Shown here in pieces: positions 43,827 through 63,909 of a stretch of DNA of 64,000 bases. Within the stretch, counting starts at the first letter, position 1, and every line of letters begins with the position of its first letter. Made by a program: the position numbers and the translations under genes. Source of the stretch: a virus (lineage: Duplodnaviria; Heunggongvirae; Uroviricota; Caudoviricetes); the IMG/VR virus record IMGVR_UViG_3300027710_001241, positions 16,620 to 80,619 of that record, one strand, 5' to 3'. Under the pieces are notes generated by a model. It did no database searches. It was not told the DNA's origin and saw only the letters and a list, made by a program, of their open reading frames with translations.

Positions 43827-44132
43827 TCATTCTGGTTCTACTTTAATTATCAGAGGATAACCGTTAGCCCTAGCAAGATTGGTTGCGTCGAGTGCTTTTT
43901 GCTCTGCAACTTCGTAGCTAAAAACACCGGCAACAGCACTACCGCTATTGTGTATCTTTAGTGTTAGCTCTAGAGCGGATTTTTCATTGTGTCGGAATAC
44001 CATGACCAGCATGGATATTACAAATTCAACAGGAGTTACATCGTCATTGCAGACGACTACTTTAAATTTACCTGGCGCTTTAATAGTGTCGGTAACTTTG
44101 GATTTCTTTTCAACGATTGTATCTGTTGCCAT
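43827..44132 (-). CDS. clpS: ATP-dependent Clp protease adaptor ClpS
   Basis: VVVCNDDVTPVEFV ... ClpS core. Confidence 0.8.
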   Translation of the reverse strand: MATDTIVEKKSKVTDTIKAPGKFKVVVCNDDVTPVEFVISMLVMVFRHNEKSALELTLKIHNSGSAVAGVFSYEVAEQKALDATNLARANGYPLIIKVEPE

Positions 44133-44182
44133 GATTGTATTTAATAACGGGTTTAGTAAAGGGGGCCGAAGCCCCTGAAAGA

Positions 44183-44617
44183 TTACTCAGCCTTGATCTT
44201 TAAAACTCTTGGCTTAAGAGCTTCAGGAACAACACGAGTTAGAGCAATAGTAAGAACACCGTTTTTAATGCGGCCTTCTCCTACTTCCATGTGTTCAGCT
44301 AGAGTCCAACTGCGTGTAAAATCACGAGTCGCTAGTCCACGATGTAGATACTGTGTTTCAGCGTCTTCATTGCGACTACGTTTACCTGTGACTACAAGTT
44401 GGTTTTGATCAAGCTCAACTACAACTTCATCTGGAGTAAAACCAGTAACAGCAATTTCCAACTCATAAGAGTTGTCATCGTGTTTTAGAATGTTGTATGG
44501 TGGATATGAGTTATTGATTTGACTTGCAAGACGCTGTTCGAAGTTATCAAACATTGTGTCAAATCCTACTAGAGCTCTGTTTAGAGCATTGGTGTCGAAA
44601 CGTACTAATTGATTCAT
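44183..44617 (-). CDS. Hsp20/alpha-crystallin small heat-shock protein
   Basis: alpha-crystallin domain; AAAGGAG SD. Confidence 0.85.
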   Translation of the reverse strand: MNQLVRFDTNALNRALVGFDTMFDNFEQRLASQINNSYPPYNILKHDDNSYELEIAVTGFTPDEVVVELDQNQLVVTGKRSRNEDAETQYLHRGLATRDFTRSWTLAEHMEVGEGRIKNGVLTIALTRVVPEALKPRVLKIKAE

Positions 44618-44630
44618 AATTTTCTCCTTT

Positions 44631-44662
44631 AATAAGTAAGAATCATTTGGGCTCTATGCCCA
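44631..44662 (-). promoter_or_regulatory. conserved leader motif upstream of hsp20 (shared with dnaK)
   Basis: minus reads GGGCATAGAGCCC AAATGATTCTTACTTATT AAAGGAG; hairpin GGGC/GCCC. Confidence 0.4.
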
Positions 44663-44706
44663 ATTGTAGGACCCATTTAGGTGTCCTACAATTTTATTTA
44701 TAACAA

Positions 44707-46584
44707 TTATACACTCTCTTTAACTTCTGCGTCAACAATATTGTCATCCGCAGGTTTAGCATTGGCAGTTTCTGCCTGTTTCTTTTCCATCAAAGGACCC
44801 ATGGCCTTGAACATTGCCTGTACAAGATCTTGAATAATCTTAGGATCATCACCTTTGGCAGCATCTTCAACGGCTTTAATAGCATCTTCAAGGTTAGCTT
44901 TTTCTTCGGCAGTAACTTGATCAATATATTTTTCTTTGTCTTCTTTGATGGTATAAATGGCATTTTCAGCACCGTTACGTGCTTCTACAAGTTCACGCTT
45001 TTTCTTATCTTCTTCAGCGTTAAGTTCAGCGTCCTTGATCATGTCTTGGATTTCAGCTTCACTTAGACCACTGCTAGACTTGATAGTGATCTTGTTTTCT
45101 TTGCCAGTGTTCTTGTCCTTGGCAGATACGTGCATGATACCATTGGCATCAATGTCAAAGGTGATTTCAATTTGAGGGGTGCCTCTGCGAGCAGGAGGAA
45201 TACCTTCTAGGTTAAAGTCACCTAACAACTTGTTGTACTGAACAAACTCACGCTCACCCTGGAATGCTTTAACGGTAACAGCTGGTTGATTGTCTTCCGC
45301 AGTAGAGAATGTTTGGCTAGCCTTAGTAGGAATAGTTGTATTCTTCTGAATCAACTTGGTCATAACACCACCCATGGTTTCAATACCCAGGCTCAATGGT
45401 GTAACGTCTAACAATAGAACGTCTGTACGGCCACCACCTAGTACATCACCTTGAATGGCAGCACCAGCGGCTACAGCTTCGTCTGGGTTAACATCCTTAC
45501 GTGGTGTCTTGCCAAACAACTTTTCAACTGTTTCAGCAACCTTAGGCATACGTGTCATACCACCGACTAGAATAACTTCATCGATATCTGCGGCTGTAAC
45601 ACCTGCATCTGCCATGGCAGTCTTACAAGGTGCAACACTACGTTGGATTAACTCATCAACTAACTGTTCAAGTTTAGCACGAGTAATCTTAACGTTCATA
45701 TGCTTAGGACCACTAGCATCTGCTGTGATGTAAGGCAGGTTAACATCTGTCTGTGCTGAACTAGACAATTCAATTTTAGCCTTCTCAGCGGCTTCTTTCA
45801 GACGTTGTAGAGCTAACATGTCTTTGGTAAGGTCAACACCGTTGTCTTTCTTGAACTCTGCAACCAAGTAATCCATAATACGTTGGTCGAAGTCTTCACC
45901 ACCGAGGAATGTATCGCCATTGGTACTTAGAACTTCAATTTGTTTATCACCGTCGACATTCGCAATCTCAATGATCGATACGTCAAATGTTCCACCTCCC
46001 AAATCATACACAGCAATTTTGCGATCAGCTTTATCTGCTTTGTCAACGCCATAAGCTAGAGCAGCCGCAGTTGGTTCGTTAATAATACGGAGTACTTCCA
46101 AGCCGGCAATCTTACCAGCATCTTTAGTTGCCTGACGCTGGCTGTCGTTAAAGTATGCAGGAACTGTAATAACCGCTTGTGTAACTGTTTCACCTAGATA
46201 ATCCTCTGCGGTCTGTTTCATCTTACGCAGGACCTCTGCGCTGATCTGTGGAGGAGCAAGTTTGTCCTCGTTTACCTGTACCCAAGCATCGCCGTTATCA
46301 GCCTGTACAATTTTGTAGGGCATCAAGTCGATGTCTTTTTGTACAGCTTCTTCTGTGAACTTACGTCCAATAAGACGCTTACTTGCGTAGATTGTGTTTT
46401 TGGGGTTTGTAACTGCTTGACGCTTTGCTGAAGCTCCTACAAGGATTTCATCGTTAGCGTAGGCAACAATACTAGGTGTAGTACGTGCGCCTTCTGAATT
46501 TTCAATAACTTTTGTAACACCATTTTCAATGACTGCTACACACGAATTTGTTGTACCTAAATCGATACCGATTACTCTACTCAT
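44707..46584 (-). CDS. dnaK: molecular chaperone DnaK (Hsp70)
   Basis: [22 protein letters not shown] and other Hsp70 signatures; start at [10 protein letters not shown] with AAGGAG SD. Confidence 0.95.
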
Positions 46585-46596
46585 TTTTATCTCCTT

Positions 46597-61823: not shown

Positions 61824-61848
61824 TTTGGTTCCTTTCTAATATGTATTA

Positions 61849-61877
61849 ATTATACAGGAAAAACCTAATATTGTCAA
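61849..61877 (-). promoter_or_regulatory. sigma70 consensus promoter of the MTase operon
   Basis: rc reads CTTGACA ATATTAGGTTTTTCCTG TATAAT. Confidence 0.6.
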
Positions 61878-61894
61878 GTGTAGGTTTTACCAAA

Positions 61895-62425
61895 TTATCT
61901 AGGACGGATTTTCATTTTAGCGTAGATGTTTTGGACACCTACGGCTTGCCGAATGGCATCCTGCAGAGCATCGTGTTTACTACCCTGCGGCATGTCTGGA
62001 TCGTAGCCCAAATCAAACAATGTACGGGTGTCGCGTAACTGCCAATAATTCCACGGCAAAGGTTTGCCAAGTTGGCGATAGATATTTTCAATGATAACCA
62101 AGTCAAAGGTAGCACCGTGACTCCAAAATGCCGAGCAACCCCAAGCGAATTTGTGGAACTGGTCCATGGCATCCGCAAGTGGAATACGACCTTCTTCACT
62201 GAATGCTTCTTCCATAATAGCAGGGTCTTGACGCCCCCACCACTCAAGTGTGGCGGGGTCAATTTCACGGCCTAACTTATCTTGGTCGTCGAGATCAATT
62301 TTAAAATAAATTTTCTCACCATAGCCCTGCGCATAGGGATTAAAGTGGACTGCGCCTAGACTGAGGACTACAGCGTTTGGGGAGACTGCCATAGTCTCCA
62401 TATCGATCATAAGATGTTTTGTCAT
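61895..62425 (-). CDS. DEDDh 3'-5' exonuclease (DnaQ/KapD-like)
   Basis: IDMETMA (exo I) and HDALQDA (exo III). Confidence 0.65.
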   Translation of the reverse strand: MTKHLMIDMETMAVSPNAVVLSLGAVHFNPYAQGYGEKIYFKIDLDDQDKLGREIDPATLEWWGRQDPAIMEEAFSEEGRIPLADAMDQFHKFAWGCSAFWSHGATFDLVIIENIYRQLGKPLPWNYWQLRDTRTLFDLGYDPDMPQGSKHDALQDAIRQAVGVQNIYAKMKIRPR

Positions 62426-62456
62426 ACATCAAGTATAACACATCTTATGGTATTTG

Positions 62457-62693
62457 TCAATACATTTTTTTAGGTAGGCTTTGGTCTCTGAGTTTCTTTT
62501 GCCAACGACTTTTGGCTGCTCCTGCTCTACGCTTTCGGACAGTAGTTGGCTTTTCGTAGAACATTTTGGCTCTCAGTGTTTCCAAAATTCCAGAATCATC
62601 TACTTTTTGTTTAAATTTTCTCAGTGCTACGTTCAACGGCAGGTCGCCTACGATAACCTTATTACCCATTAGTGCTTTGTTGTTTTTGCTCAT
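62457..62693 (-). CDS. rpsU: ribosomal protein S21
   Basis: VALRKFKQ ... [12 protein letters not shown] matches bS21; listed ORF uses TTG, ATG at 62693 preferred (start could be further in). Confidence 0.7.
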
Positions 62694-63909
62694 TTTTCTT
62701 TTTATCAAAAATCATAATGGCTGGTTTGCCATCAACGGTATCTTTACTTATGCGAATTGACTTCAAACCGCGTTCGACGAGATCTACAGCATCAAACTGA
62801 TAGGGCATTAAGATCTTTTCGATAATGTTTTTAAGTCCGCGAGCATTGGTTTTGAGATCTTTGGCTCGTTTTGCAATTTCATGTAAGGCATCTTGATCAA
62901 AACTTAGATTAATGCCATCTAACTCAAACATATATTGATACTGCTTGATCGTGCTGTTTTTAGTATCTACGAGAATTTTTACAAGTTGATCTTCACTGAG
63001 TTCATCTACGTTAGTAATCAATCCAAAGCGACCCACGAATTCAGGAATAAGTCCAAACTTGATAAGATCCTTGGTTGTCACTTCTTGTAGCAAAGCTGGA
63101 TTATCTTCTACGTTGTCTACATTAGCATGGAAGCCTACACTTCTAGCACCTGTACGTTGTTTGATAAGTTTGTCAATGCCTACAAAGGCGCCGCCGCAGA
63201 TAAACAAGATACTACGAGTATCAATCTCCTGCATATCACTGCCCGGGTGTTTGCGTTTACTAGTAGACGGCACTCTCATAATGCTGCCTTCGATCATCTT
63301 TAGCAGGGCTTGTTGCACACCTTCTCCGCTGACATCTCGGGTGATACTAGCACTTTCGCCCTTACGGCTGATCTTGTCGATTTCATCAATGTAGACAATA
63401 CCTCGAGCTGCTTTTTCCATATCTCCGTCTGCTTCATTGATCAAACGAGTAAGAATACTTTCTACATCATCACCGACGTAGCCTGCCTCTGTAATACCAG
63501 TAGCATCACATATAGCAAAGGGTAGATCTAGGTATTCGGCAATCTTACGTGCCATCATTGTTTTGCCACAGCCAGTAGGACCTAACAATAATACATTGGT
63601 TTTTTCTAGCTCAATGTCTTTACTGGGATTATTAATGCGTTTAAAATGCTGGCTAACTGCCACACTTAGTGCAATCTTAGCATCATCTTGACCTATAACA
63701 TAATCGTCTAGGTACTCTTTTATTTTAACGGGGTTTAGTAGTTTAAGTGTATTAGGAAAAGTTTTTACTTTTTCATCTTTGAGTATATCAATACAAAGCT
63801 CTACACAATCATTACAAATGGCAGCGTGATCGCCGACAATTAACTTTTCCACATCCTCTTTGCTTTTGTTGCAAAAATCACACTTGTGGTCTGTTTCCGA
63901 TTTTGTCAT
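62662..63909 (-). CDS. clpX: ATP-dependent Clp protease ATP-binding subunit ClpX
   Basis: N-terminal C4 zinc finger (CDFCNKSK ... CNDCVE), Walker A GPTGCGKT, full AAA+ domain. Confidence 0.95.

Follow-up and report, generated by a model that had tools for sequence, protein, structure and literature searches.

Introduction

Large phages that encode chaperones, Clp proteins and ribosomal protein S21 have already been published, and the genes that concern us here, which occupy positions 43827–63909 of a 64,000-nt stretch of DNA (hereafter the window; positions 16,620–80,619 of the IMG/VR virus record IMGVR_UViG_3300027710_001241), form a set of the expected kind. The original prediction for this DNA was of a host-like group of ClpS, Hsp20, DnaK, ClpX, S21, RpoZ, AhpC/AhpD, TerC and SPFH genes in a phage-like setting, and searches with Pfam and NCBIfam recover every one of them where it had been placed or close by, all on the minus strand (Table 1). 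The region holds further genes that were not on that list: a Ro60-like protein with an accompanying RNA, an Rv2179c-like exoribonuclease, a 1140-aa methyltransferase, a metallophosphoesterase, and genes of the DUF401 and DUF454 families. We consider it likely that the region belongs to the accessory, or 'host-takeover', arm of a jumbo myovirus-like phage from freshwater that has not been cultured and whose probable host is among the Burkholderiales, and that the host-derived genes of the region are in use. The sequence examined amounts to ~85 kb (the window and its flanks) of a genome estimated at 250–290 kb.

ClpX, ClpS and Hsp20 are on record in cultured jumbo phages. The Clp sets of Agrobacterium phage Atu_ph07, Sinorhizobium phage Phosso and Bacillus phage G ('group 2.2'; Iyer et al., 2021) resemble the one described here in combining full-length ClpX with ClpS in genomes of more than 200 kb, and the published reading for jumbo phages is that ClpS feeds host ClpAP and that ClpX serves as a translocase or chaperone (PMC7824862; PMC6102473). 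The present ClpX is 47–52% identical to ClpX of cultured jumbo phages. Atu_ph07 also has ClpP, ClpA, ClpB and DnaJ, whereas no ClpP, ClpA or DnaJ is present within the sequence reached here; moreover, unlike in sets of the Atu_ph07 type, clpX overlaps the S21 gene in an operon-like arrangement with an exoribonuclease gene, and DnaK is encoded in full. The moraphages described by Perez-Hernandez et al. (2025; PMC12619734) are likewise freshwater phages with genomes of up to ~300 kb and host-derived DnaK and Hsp20, as well as DnaJ, but their DnaK nests within the Flavobacteriaceae and their predicted hosts are Bacteroidota, whereas the DnaK described here is sister to those of Burkholderiales and no DnaJ was found. 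Membership of the moraphage lineage was rejected because of that Flavobacteriaceae-derived DnaK and because ClpX, ClpS and S21 are not mentioned in the moraphage paper.

Lake Baikal VP_1254 (Coutinho et al., 2020; PMC7678222) consists of ~17-kb freshwater scaffolds with DnaK, curli-production genes and S21, and the window has the same trio. Judged by its described gene content, VP_1254 probably represents the same or a sister lineage, although its host was predicted to be Methyloglobulus from DnaK similarity, whereas the cellular DnaKs closest to ours are led by Comamonadaceae and other Burkholderiales. Virus-encoded S21, which had been pointed to as a known feature of marine phages, has indeed been reported from aquatic and huge phages (PMC6375957; PMC7162821; PMC9723584). 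In the Bacteroidota phages of PMC9723584, S21 and its expression are reportedly tied to late-stage replication, whereas here the S21 gene always overlaps the end of clpX, and those S21-phage clades were rejected as a home for the element on the ground of that late-stage link. It has been proposed that phage S21 favours initiation on phage mRNAs.

The auxiliary regions of T4-like cyanophages and pelagimyophages share heme oxygenase, bilin reductase, Hsp20, 2OG-Fe(II) oxygenases, PstS, tRNA arrays and RIIA with the present element, and these are typical auxiliary genes of cyanomyoviruses. Unlike cyanophages, however, this element has no close DNA or protein relative among deposited phages, its DnaK points to a betaproteobacterial host, and DnaK, ClpX, ClpS and RpoZ are added to the set. 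A cyanophage identity, which heme oxygenase, bilin reductase and the 33 tRNAs had suggested, was dropped because DnaK groups with Betaproteobacteria and no close cyanophage DNA or protein match was obtained. Heme oxygenase and bilin reductase are a fixed part of the backbone despite a DnaK phylogeny that suggests a betaproteobacterial host without photosynthesis.

An uncultured freshwater lineage of probable large phages

A megablast search of the 20-kb region against 50,697 deposited phages returned no match, and the lineage is therefore without a sequenced close relative among deposited phages. Relatives come from metagenomes: IMG/VR contains 52 related loci with ClpX identities of 54–95% on contigs of up to 208 kb, the exact ClpX protein recurs with identical gene order on freshwater-metagenome contigs from JGI, ENA and Logan, and the metagenomic DnaK clade is large (82–100% identity, contigs up to 293 kb). 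The element is a member of a diverse uncultured freshwater lineage. Close relatives that carry the module lie on contigs of 208, 253, 272 and 293 kb (the window itself is 64 kb), and a compact form of the module is found on a 253-kb scaffold. The element had been described as a jumbo phage or a megaphage-like entity; the large-phage context and the related contigs of 253–293 kb, examples of which are ENA ERZ18631774 (BUCK21-1 scaffold_5) and IMGVR_UViG_3300042302_000394, speak for the former, and a genome of ~250–290 kb ('jumbo') is more likely than one of megaphage size.

The genes that we read as signatures of a phage were seen in syntenic relatives, outside the window itself. They are a full-length RIIA (phrog_612, 444 bits), NrdA (840 bits), NrdB (377 bits), NAMPT (545 bits) and a NadM-Nudix-like enzyme; PstS is also present in these relatives, as is a gp5-like baseplate hub/PAAR protein, for which the match is weak. 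RIIA and other phage genes lie at most 10 kb away in relatives, and the cultured phages nearest by RIIA are 287-kb Pseudomonas jumbo phages of the PA5oct/MIJ3 type, at only 30% identity. The window has a G+C content of ~40%, 81 of its 103 greedily called open reading frames (ORFs) are on the minus strand, and its array of 33 tRNA genes is accompanied by no rRNA that ARAGORN or an Rfam scan of the window could find. The consensus phage-type promoters noted earlier are real: with at most one mismatch allowed, TTGACA-N17-TATAAT occurs 19 times in the window against 1.04 expected, none of 100 shuffled sequences contained as many, and 17 of the 19 sites are on the coding strand. This wealth of consensus sigma-70 promoters is in keeping with a phage dependent on host RNA polymerase (RNAP), and the region would be read from these strong promoters of host type. 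The signature non-structural genes (rIIA, nrdAB, NAMPT/NadM-Nudix) and the sigma-70-type early promoters together make up the set of a T4-like myovirus in the broad sense. We assign the element to the phages because of RIIA, NrdAB and gp5/PAAR in its relatives, the tRNA array without rRNA, its IMG/VR classification and its overall gene content, so that the phage-like context, as opposed to a bacterial chromosome, is upheld.

A stable backbone with exchangeable cargo

The gene set is organised as a stable backbone into which exchangeable cargo is fitted. In ~55 loci the backbone runs from ClpX through S21, the Rv2179c-like exoribonuclease, a variable stretch, the metallophosphoesterase, orf83, orf98, DnaK where present, Hsp20 and ClpS to heme oxygenase and bilin reductase, and this order is kept across ClpX identities from 95% down to 67%. 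The clustering is not a matter of chance, because the gene order recurs in dozens of independent assemblies. ClpX, S21 and the exoribonuclease form a conserved trio at one end; heme oxygenase and bilin reductase, syntenic in at least 10 relatives, are the fixed distal end at the other. Hsp20 stands directly upstream of ClpS in all relatives compared, and DnaK is optional, being found only in a sub-clade of the related loci. The two small genes orf98 and orf83 have no significant family match in profile scans. The lineage-specific cargo comprises the AhpC/AhpD cassette, TerC, the aldolase, SPFH, the Ro60-like protein with its RNA, DUF401 and the methyltransferase, of which SPFH, TerC, DUF401 and the 1140-aa methyltransferase are sporadic among relatives.

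Fourteen genes were compared between the window and its relatives, at synonymous divergences from 0.3 to above 2, and in each of them the ratio of nonsynonymous to synonymous substitution rates (dN/dS) was within 0.02–0.25. Values were 0.02–0.08 for ClpX, 0.03–0.08 for both DnaK and AhpC, ~0.1 for S21 and 0.11–0.20 for RpoZ. The genes are intact and under purifying selection, and we therefore conclude that the phage uses its host-derived genes. DnaK, ClpX, S21 and RpoZ also pass the curated equivalog cut-offs of NCBI.

Table 1. Features of the window, ordered by position (GA, gathering threshold of the family)
Feature	Coordinates	Strand	Evidence and remarks
tRNA array, 33 genes, interspersed with small ORFs and RpoZ	3235..17524	-	ARAGORN; 31/33 also pass the Rfam tRNA gathering score
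RpoZ, RNA polymerase omega homologue, 76 aa	7741..7971	-	PF01192 29.5 bits (GA 26); TIGR00690 26.3 vs 23.6
Bilin reductase (ferredoxin-dependent)	42630..43301	-	PF05996; dN/dS 0.09–0.18 (with heme oxygenase)
Heme oxygenase	43282..43818	-	PF01126; dN/dS 0.09–0.18 (with bilin reductase)
ClpS, adaptor of ClpA/ClpC-ClpP, 101 aa	43827..44132	-	PF02617 86.8 bits
Hsp20, IbpA-like, 144 aa	44183..44617	-	PF00011 62 bits; IbpA model 117 bits, under cut-off 212
DnaK (Hsp70), 625 aa	44707..46584	-	PF00012 852 bits; NCBIfam equivalog NF001413 975 bits vs cut-off 648
orf98 and orf83, small backbone genes	46675..47219	-	15–17 related loci, same order, ahead of DnaK/Hsp20
Calcineurin-like metallophosphoesterase	48925..49737	-	PF00149; in 25 loci; dN/dS 0.03–0.06
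Intrinsic terminator of RNA/Ro60-like unit	51599..51624	-	11-bp stem, then T-run
Divergent Ro60-like protein, 465 aa	51632..53029	-	Pfam DUF2828 and DUF7788; phrog_850 'RNA-binding protein' 506 bits
Structured RNA, ~470 nt	53049..53525	-	Domain 1 53506–53343; domain 2 53331–53087; 3' hairpin 53086–53064
Perfect sigma-70 promoter of RNA and Ro60-like gene	53532..53560	-	TTGACA-17-TATAAT; invariant in 5 aligned relatives
SPFH/Band-7 membrane protein	53598..54395	-	PF01145 66 bits; in 2–3 relatives only; variable cargo
AhpD-type alkylhydroperoxidase (CMD)	54669..55175	-	PF02627; CHFCVKAH = CxxCxxxH active site
Class II aldolase-family protein	55806..56426	-	PF00596; variable in relatives
TerC-family membrane protein	56419..56997	-	PF03741; variable in relatives
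AhpC/TSA-type 2-Cys peroxiredoxin	56997..57536	-	PF00578 75 bits; FTFVCPTE; C-terminal C168-x-C170
1140-aa protein, C-terminal Eco57I-type/type II N6-adenine methyltransferase domain	58234..61656	-	PF07669; PADLOC MTase_II 81.8 bits
Rv2179c-like DEDDh 3'-5' exoribonuclease	61895..62425	-	PF16473 131.7 bits; in 51/58 loci; dN/dS 0.03–0.05
Ribosomal protein bS21, 70–83 aa by start chosen	62457..62708	-	PF01165 46.9 bits (GA 27); TIGR00030 50.1 vs 28.95
ClpX, 415 aa	62662..63909	-	zf-C4_ClpX and AAA_2; equivalog 530 bits vs cut-off 359

ClpX and ClpS

ClpX passes a second NCBIfam equivalog model besides the one in Table 1 (498 bits against a cut-off of 371) and aligns over its full length with E. 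coli ClpX (8E91), with the four zinc-finger cysteines, Walker A and B, the GYVG and RKH loops, the arginine finger and sensor II all kept, and with VGF in the place of the ClpP-docking IGF of the E. coli protein. Across 35 distinct viral ClpX homologues these motifs are invariant or nearly so, and the docking tripeptide [I/V]GF is present in every variant listed. Since the tripeptide is kept in all of these while its flanks vary, docking on a ClpP is indicated, and the partner would most likely be host ClpP, bound through this loop, unless a ClpP is encoded elsewhere on the genome. No ClpP was found in the window, as originally stated, or within 10 kb on either side of ClpX in 58 related loci (tblastn with an E. 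coli query, E ≤ 10).

Just past window position 64000, directly upstream of ClpX, 52 loci have a gene for a 450–510-aa protein (7896–9425 of locus L050; 8246–9619 of L001) that is as conserved in position as ClpX and is without a PHROG match; it is followed by a 137-aa ORF that overlaps the clpX start.

In the ClpS of E. coli, N34, D35, D36, T38 and H66 make up what we take to be the N-degron pocket, and E79 and K84 presumably contact the ClpA N-domain. When the phage protein is aligned to E. coli ClpS (3O2B, 1MBU), N-D-D, T, H, E79 and K84 are kept and M40 is replaced by V; the pocket residues are kept across 13 viral ClpS homologues, the gatekeeper M40 being Met or Val in relatives, and E-x-AEQK is identical in all listed viral variants. 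A search with an E. coli sequence found no ClpA N-domain encoded in the window, and a ClpA partner would therefore come from the host.

The two Clp proteins had been interpreted as a pair that redirects host ClpP. One part of this stands, in that ClpX keeps its docking loop and use of host ClpP is plausible; the pairing itself does not, as ClpS is an adaptor of ClpA/ClpC and not of ClpX (PMC7824862; PMC6102473) and the two genes are 18 kb apart, at opposite ends of the backbone. Because of that adaptor specificity, ClpX and ClpS are better seen as two separate putative interventions, one on ClpXP and one on ClpAP, in the second of which ClpS would bind the N-domain of host ClpA and redirect ClpAP to N-degron substrates.

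DnaK, Hsp20 and the probable host

DnaK scores 900 bits with TIGR02350 (cut-off 823), and its PF00012 match covers positions 1–596 of the 599 in the profile. The ORF reaches a GTG at 46620, which would give 637 aa, but an ATG at 46584 behind AAGGAG gives 625 aa, as in database relatives, and this ATG, 12 codons downstream of the ORF start, is probably the true start.

A search of 185,579 species representatives gave, among the best 80 cellular matches, Burkholderiales DnaKs at the top with 71–74% full-length identity, mostly from freshwater Comamonadaceae (Limnohabitans, Rhodoferax, Polaromonas); gammaproteobacterial DnaKs were 66–70% identical, and no Methylococcales appeared among these 80. 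A DnaK phylogeny, one of the checks suggested with the original prediction, was obtained by neighbour-joining and places the viral DnaKs as a monophyletic group, sister to Burkholderiales, within the Betaproteobacteria. This topology points to a single old capture of DnaK, after which the gene would have diversified within the phage lineage; a betaproteobacterium belonging to the Burkholderiales is the probable host.

No ORF of at least 40 aa in the window contains the HPD motif of a J-domain, and neither a J-domain protein nor GrpE gave a tblastn match there with E. coli queries, so that DnaK should depend on host co-chaperones. The adjacent Hsp20 is an IbpA-like small heat-shock protein, a class that is the natural upstream partner of DnaK in disaggregation. 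Together the two would add folding and disaggregation capacity, with DnaJ and GrpE of the host needed for the purpose.

Ribosomal protein S21, omega and an exoribonuclease

The bS21 gene overlaps the 3' end of clpX and comes directly after ClpX in ~50 loci; its product has a short basic N-terminal extension and is at most 47% identical to any S21 of deposited phages. The RpoZ homologue, in contrast to the backbone genes, is embedded in the tRNA array. Although it passes both family models, it does so marginally; its core, NRFDLVLIAA.R.RE, which would bind beta', is kept in 34 viral homologues, and homologues at 45–92% identity are present on 53 IMG/VR contigs of up to 352 kb (loci L144–L196). 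No homologue was detected in the 50,697 deposited phages (tblastn, E ≤ 1e-3), literature searches found no report of a phage omega, and a phage RpoZ appears not to have been reported previously. Tuning of host RNAP by this protein is plausible as judged from its sequence, and bS21 and omega would replace or supplement the host subunits in ribosomes and RNAP, respectively.

Relative to E. coli omega, RpoZ has an N-terminal extension of ~5 residues, which adjoins the region of omega that we take to contribute to ppGpp site 1.

A Ro60-like protein and its structured RNA

The Ro60 of Thermus phage phiLo binds two Y-RNA-like RNAs (Yrl1/Yrl2) that are encoded directly upstream of it, each with a stem that pairs its 5' and 3' ends, and recruits host PNPase (PMC12135203); bacterial Ro60 genes adjoin YrlA RNAs (PMC4201824). 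The 465-aa protein of the present region yielded no TROVE/Ro60 sequence match with Pfam at E ≤ 10 or with phmmer and profile searches against the PDB. Its AlphaFold2 (AF2) model, which is of moderate confidence (pLDDT 67.8, pTM 0.65), has a helical-repeat domain followed by an alpha/beta domain, and the only full-length PDB matches of this model are to phiLo Ro60 (9KOP, E 7e-8; 9L5Y, E 5e-7), with a probability of 1.00, ~500 aligned columns and a TM of ~0.47, all other matches being confined to the vWA domain. It is the fold comparison, and nothing else, that links the protein to Ro60, since all sequence-based tests failed. Members of the family are found in 709 deposited phage records; the gene adjoins tRNA genes in Ralstonia phage RSP15 and an RNA ligase gene in Serratia phage BF.

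Between the SPFH gene and the Ro60-like gene lies a 570-nt stretch free of ORFs, and most of it is occupied by the structured RNA of Table 1. Scanning for terminators gave no candidate site between the RNA and the Ro60-like ORF, and because a strong terminator comes only after the protein gene, the RNA is probably the 5' part of a shared transcript. The RNA has two domains of 164 nt and 245 nt and a 3' hairpin. The closing helix of domain 1 is AGGUUAG/CUAACCU, alternating with AGGAUCG/CGAUCCU, that of domain 2 is GGAUGG/CCAUCC, alternating with GGAUGA/UCAUCC, and an invariant CAGCAA comes after each 5' strand (motif positions 53496, 53322 and 53068). Pairing of CAGCAA with the UGUU that comes after the closing helices, as an H-type pseudoknot, was rejected on geometric grounds for domains 1 and 2, where the stacked helices are too long to be bridged by a linker of 3 nt; the CAGCAA/UGUU pairing of the 3' hairpin is the stem itself.

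The stretch is 78–82% conserved in close relatives. Of 80 viral loci that had been fetched by way of the Ro60-like protein, most have the RNA upstream of its gene according to nhmmer (70 matches at E ≤ 1e-3), including loci in which protein identity is as low as 55%; no copy was found in 80 bacterial loci. In all, 103 sources contain it (3.0 Mb of sequence), 102 of which also have the protein gene, with the RNA upstream at a median gap of 40 nt. Of two loci with RNA only, L009 clearly breaks off where its contig ends, and L155 is a 2.7-kb stretch at a contig end; among five loci with the protein only, three have no or too little upstream sequence, and L240 and L261 have 2.5 kb upstream with no RNA match.

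Covariation bears out both domains. In domain 1, 94.6% of cells are paired and 18 of 29 pairs have changed on both sides, with a score of 0.347 against 0.152 for shuffled alignments (0/500 as high) and at most 0.074 when partners are slid. The corresponding figures for domain 2 are 98.5%, 19 of 24, 0.610 against 0.247 (0/500) and at most 0.121. These controls retain the effect of kinship among the sequences; given how slid partners score and how many pair types are independent, a chance origin of the covariation is nevertheless very unlikely. Rfam 15 has no family that matches at its gathering score, and at E ≤ 10 only four unrelated, chance-level matches were returned, the best with an E of 0.24 and well under gathering. 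A blastn search with the 570-nt stretch against deposited phages gave no match, neither ARAGORN nor the tRNA model found a tRNA-like domain in it, and no description of such a ~470-nt RNA paired with a Ro60-like protein was found in the literature.

The likeness to phiLo Ro60 thus extends from the helical-repeat ring and vWA fold to the two end-closed RNA modules directly upstream with an invariant motif by the 5' strand. In contrast to the phiLo and YrlA systems, however, the protein has no TROVE sequence similarity, the modules of 164 and 245 nt are much larger and are joined in a unit of ~470 nt, the motif is CAGCAA rather than the GNCGAA of the Ro-binding motif GNCGAA(N)G, and the RNA is without a detectable tRNA-like domain or an Rfam family match, the Y_RNA and YrlA models included. 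On the strength of the model and the RNA, the two probably constitute a new variant of the Ro60/Y-RNA system, in which the Ro60-like protein and its co-transcribed tandem Y-RNA-like RNA, possibly with the phage exoribonuclease, would handle structured or damaged RNA. To name the DEDDh exoribonuclease of the island as the candidate nuclease partner is speculation. A broader proposal can be made only tentatively, and we would bet slightly against it as a whole: that the RNA at 53049–53525 (minus strand) founds an uncatalogued, widespread family of large modular Y-RNA-like RNAs (AGG-helix, CAGCAA, closing CCU-GUU); that these are partnered with a divergent Ro60 clade (DUF2828/DUF7788, phrog_850) found in hundreds of deposited phages and on at least 297 viral contigs; that with the DEDDh exoribonuclease they form a phage RNA surveillance or degradation particle analogous to Ro60–Y RNA–PNPase; and that the phage omega is a new means of re-tuning host RNAP, for example in its ppGpp response.

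Shorter modular RNAs of this kind are recognisable in two cultured phages from nhmmer and from reading by eye (AGG-helix/CAGCAA/CCU-GUU). In Synechococcus phage BUCT-ZZ01 (ON615601, L278) the copy at 1143–1500 is in an unannotated gap upstream of the DUF2828 gene, with a weak nhmmer E of 0.5, and in Ralstonia phage RSP15 (NC_030948, L276) the copy at ~3760–3950 is in an unannotated 418-nt gap next to that gene, with an E of 2e-5. Downstream of the Ro60-like gene of BUCT-ZZ01, a further unannotated gap (L278 2905–3388) appears to contain several tRNA-like sequences with T-arms of the GGTTCGATTCC type; the insert AAAACGCATTCTGTAAAGAATGAATTCTGCAAT recurs in two of these and may be an intron or an insertion.

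Weighing the alternatives

The imported modules are all dependent on partners (ClpX without ClpP, ClpS without ClpA, DnaK without DnaJ and GrpE, S21, omega), which predicts hybrid phage–host machines: the phage would supply modules that plug into the machinery of its host. The region is in this respect a well-resolved example of large phages importing host information-processing and proteostasis machinery, from an uncultured and abundant freshwater lineage. What was less expected is the phage RpoZ, together with the ~470-nt RNA and its Ro60-like protein, and the latter side discovery may matter more than the gene set. As the modular RNA is recognisable in cultured phages (BUCT-ZZ01, RSP15), the function of a phage Ro60/Y-RNA particle becomes testable there, and it would give a function to the Pfam families DUF2828 and DUF7788.

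A number of points weigh against our interpretation. The DnaK tree was built by neighbour-joining and carries no support values, the host assignment comes from a single gene, and in the Lake Baikal study Methyloglobulus was the host given for similar scaffolds (PMC7678222). PHROG searches of the window, its flanks and the large ORFs of related loci detected no capsid, portal, terminase or tail-sheath gene; a look for clpP, terminase and capsid genes in the rest of the genome, which had been suggested at the outset as a check, turned up none in the ~85 kb reached, and other virion genes were not found either, the structural region presumably being elsewhere on the genome. A ClpP, ClpA, DnaJ or GrpE of the phage could likewise be encoded beyond those ~85 kb, and Atu_ph07 does carry its own ClpP and ClpA (PMC6102473). 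All functional steps proposed here are read from sequence. Finally, ClpS (83.5 bits against a cut-off of 149), AhpC, AhpD and the small heat-shock protein pass Pfam thresholds but miss NCBIfam equivalog cut-offs; they are therefore divergent, and their exact specificities may differ from those of the textbook proteins.

Full-length bacterial-type proteins that pass bacterial equivalog models, with no virion gene in sight, are also what one would see in bacterial chromosomal DNA, be it a genomic island or the host flank of a prophage, or in a chimeric phage–host assembly. We regard this as scarcely credible. DnaK is at most 74% identical over its full length to the best of the 185,579 species representatives and belongs to a separate viral clade; it is not flanked by grpE and dnaJ, and other essential genes are likewise outside their own operons, clpX without clpP and lon, rpsU without dnaG and rpoD. 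The ClpX/S21 overlap and the Hsp20–ClpS–heme oxygenase order recur in independent assemblies, on 250-kb contigs, with RIIA and phage genes within 10 kb in relatives, and the 33 clustered tRNAs come without rRNA. The lack of observed structural and packaging genes, and a cargo that is largely of metabolic or stress type (curli genes, sugar operon, desaturases, Fe-S assembly genes), might equally suggest a megaplasmid or phage-plasmid with few phage-derived genes instead of a lytic jumbo phage, an explanation we find improbable: RIIA, the gp5/PAAR-like protein, NrdAB, NAMPT, NadM-Nudix, dense tRNA arrays and early promoters are the signature of a T4-like or jumbo myovirus, all relatives are from a curated viral collection, and Pfam and PHROG scans of the window turned up no genes for replication initiation, partition or conjugation. 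A reading of the host-like genes as passenger DNA (morons), recently acquired and without a part in infection, is suggested by the great differences in cargo among relatives and by the absence of DnaK from many of them, but is very improbable in view of dN/dS values of 0.02–0.25 at synonymous divergences of 0.3 to more than 2, of DnaK and ClpX clades that are deep and monophyletic, and of the conserved backbone order.

The remaining alternative concerns what the Clp proteins do: ClpX might be a stand-alone unfoldase or remodeller that works without ClpP, and ClpS might mainly inhibit host ClpAP. Remodelling by ClpX without its protease is established for Mu and lambda, and ClpS inhibits the degradation of some substrates by ClpAP. 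No ClpP was found in the sequence reached. For the ClpX of jumbo phages, work as a translocase or in assembly has been suggested by Iyer et al. (PMC7824862), and PMC6102473 covers lambda O and ClpXP. Nevertheless, the occurrence of [I/V]GF in all listed variants of 35 viral ClpX proteins with varying flanks is hard to explain without binding to ClpP, and the N-degron pocket residues of ClpS are kept, which leaves this alternative a small but appreciable chance of being right. Docking on ClpP by ClpX, and adaptor function on ClpAP for ClpS, are what we prefer.

Other genes of the region and its surroundings

AhpC has its peroxidatic Cys in the FVCPTE context and a resolving Cys as well. It scores 113 bits with TIGR03137, under the cut-off of 272, and AhpD passes TIGR00778 (ahpD_dom, 29.7 bits, cut-off 27.8) and falls under the cut-off of TIGR00777 (121 bits against 192). 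An AhpD-like partner near the peroxiredoxin had been part of the original prediction, and the partnership holds in that the two genes occur together in 15 of 16 ClpX-bearing loci with AhpC and are adjacent in the simplest arrangements; in the window they are not adjacent, three inserted genes (TerC, the aldolase and an unassigned ORF) separating them. The side of ClpX on which AhpC and AhpD lie differs among relatives, so that the two genes behave like a mobile cassette. They would form a self-contained peroxidase/reductase pair, in which the AhpD-type partner would recycle AhpC and peroxides would be removed.

The 1140-aa methyltransferase is present in only two related contigs, where it is 100% identical, and is therefore a recent insertion. 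Some 780 of its N-terminal residues are without assigned function; a 188-aa ORF at 57690–58256 (minus strand) with weak methyltransferase similarity follows, and the unit has its own perfect promoter (61877–61849) and a strong terminator (57644–57618). None of SPFH, TerC, the Ro60-like protein and DUF401 was assigned to a defence system by PADLOC.

More host-like cargo is found in the flanks past the window, namely a cold-shock protein, NifU/IscA, a porin, PstS, fatty-acid desaturases and a radical-SAM enzyme. Past window position 1 (locus L059, 7813–17227), three fatty-acid desaturases, TauD, an Asp/Arg hydroxylase and a radical-SAM enzyme adjoin the tRNA/RpoZ region as further cargo for lipid and oxidative modification. 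Inside the window, the stretch 31908–40023 (minus strand) encodes a CHASE2-adenylate/guanylate cyclase and F5/8 type C (discoidin), FecR-domain, curlin-repeat and CsgG curli-secretion channel proteins, with the CsgG and curlin-repeat genes at 38.1–40.0 kb, a surface or signalling module that is unusual for a phage. A long operon at 17973–26384 (minus strand), with GDP-mannose dehydratase-type, epimerase, DegT aminotransferase, several glycosyltransferase and FkbM methyltransferase genes, would permit phage-directed synthesis of glycans. Within the tRNA region, the predictions for tRNA-Ile(tat) (13594–13683, minus strand, 90 nt, anticodon at position 32) and tRNA-Ser(gct) (15551–15641, minus strand, 91 nt) are unusually long, and the Ile(UAU) call may reflect an intron or a misassigned anticodon. 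The same region contains two proteins of the 2OG-Fe(II) oxygenase family (phrog_61; 10111–10761 and 11085–12608, minus strand), a family typical of the accessory regions of cyanomyoviruses and pelagimyophages.

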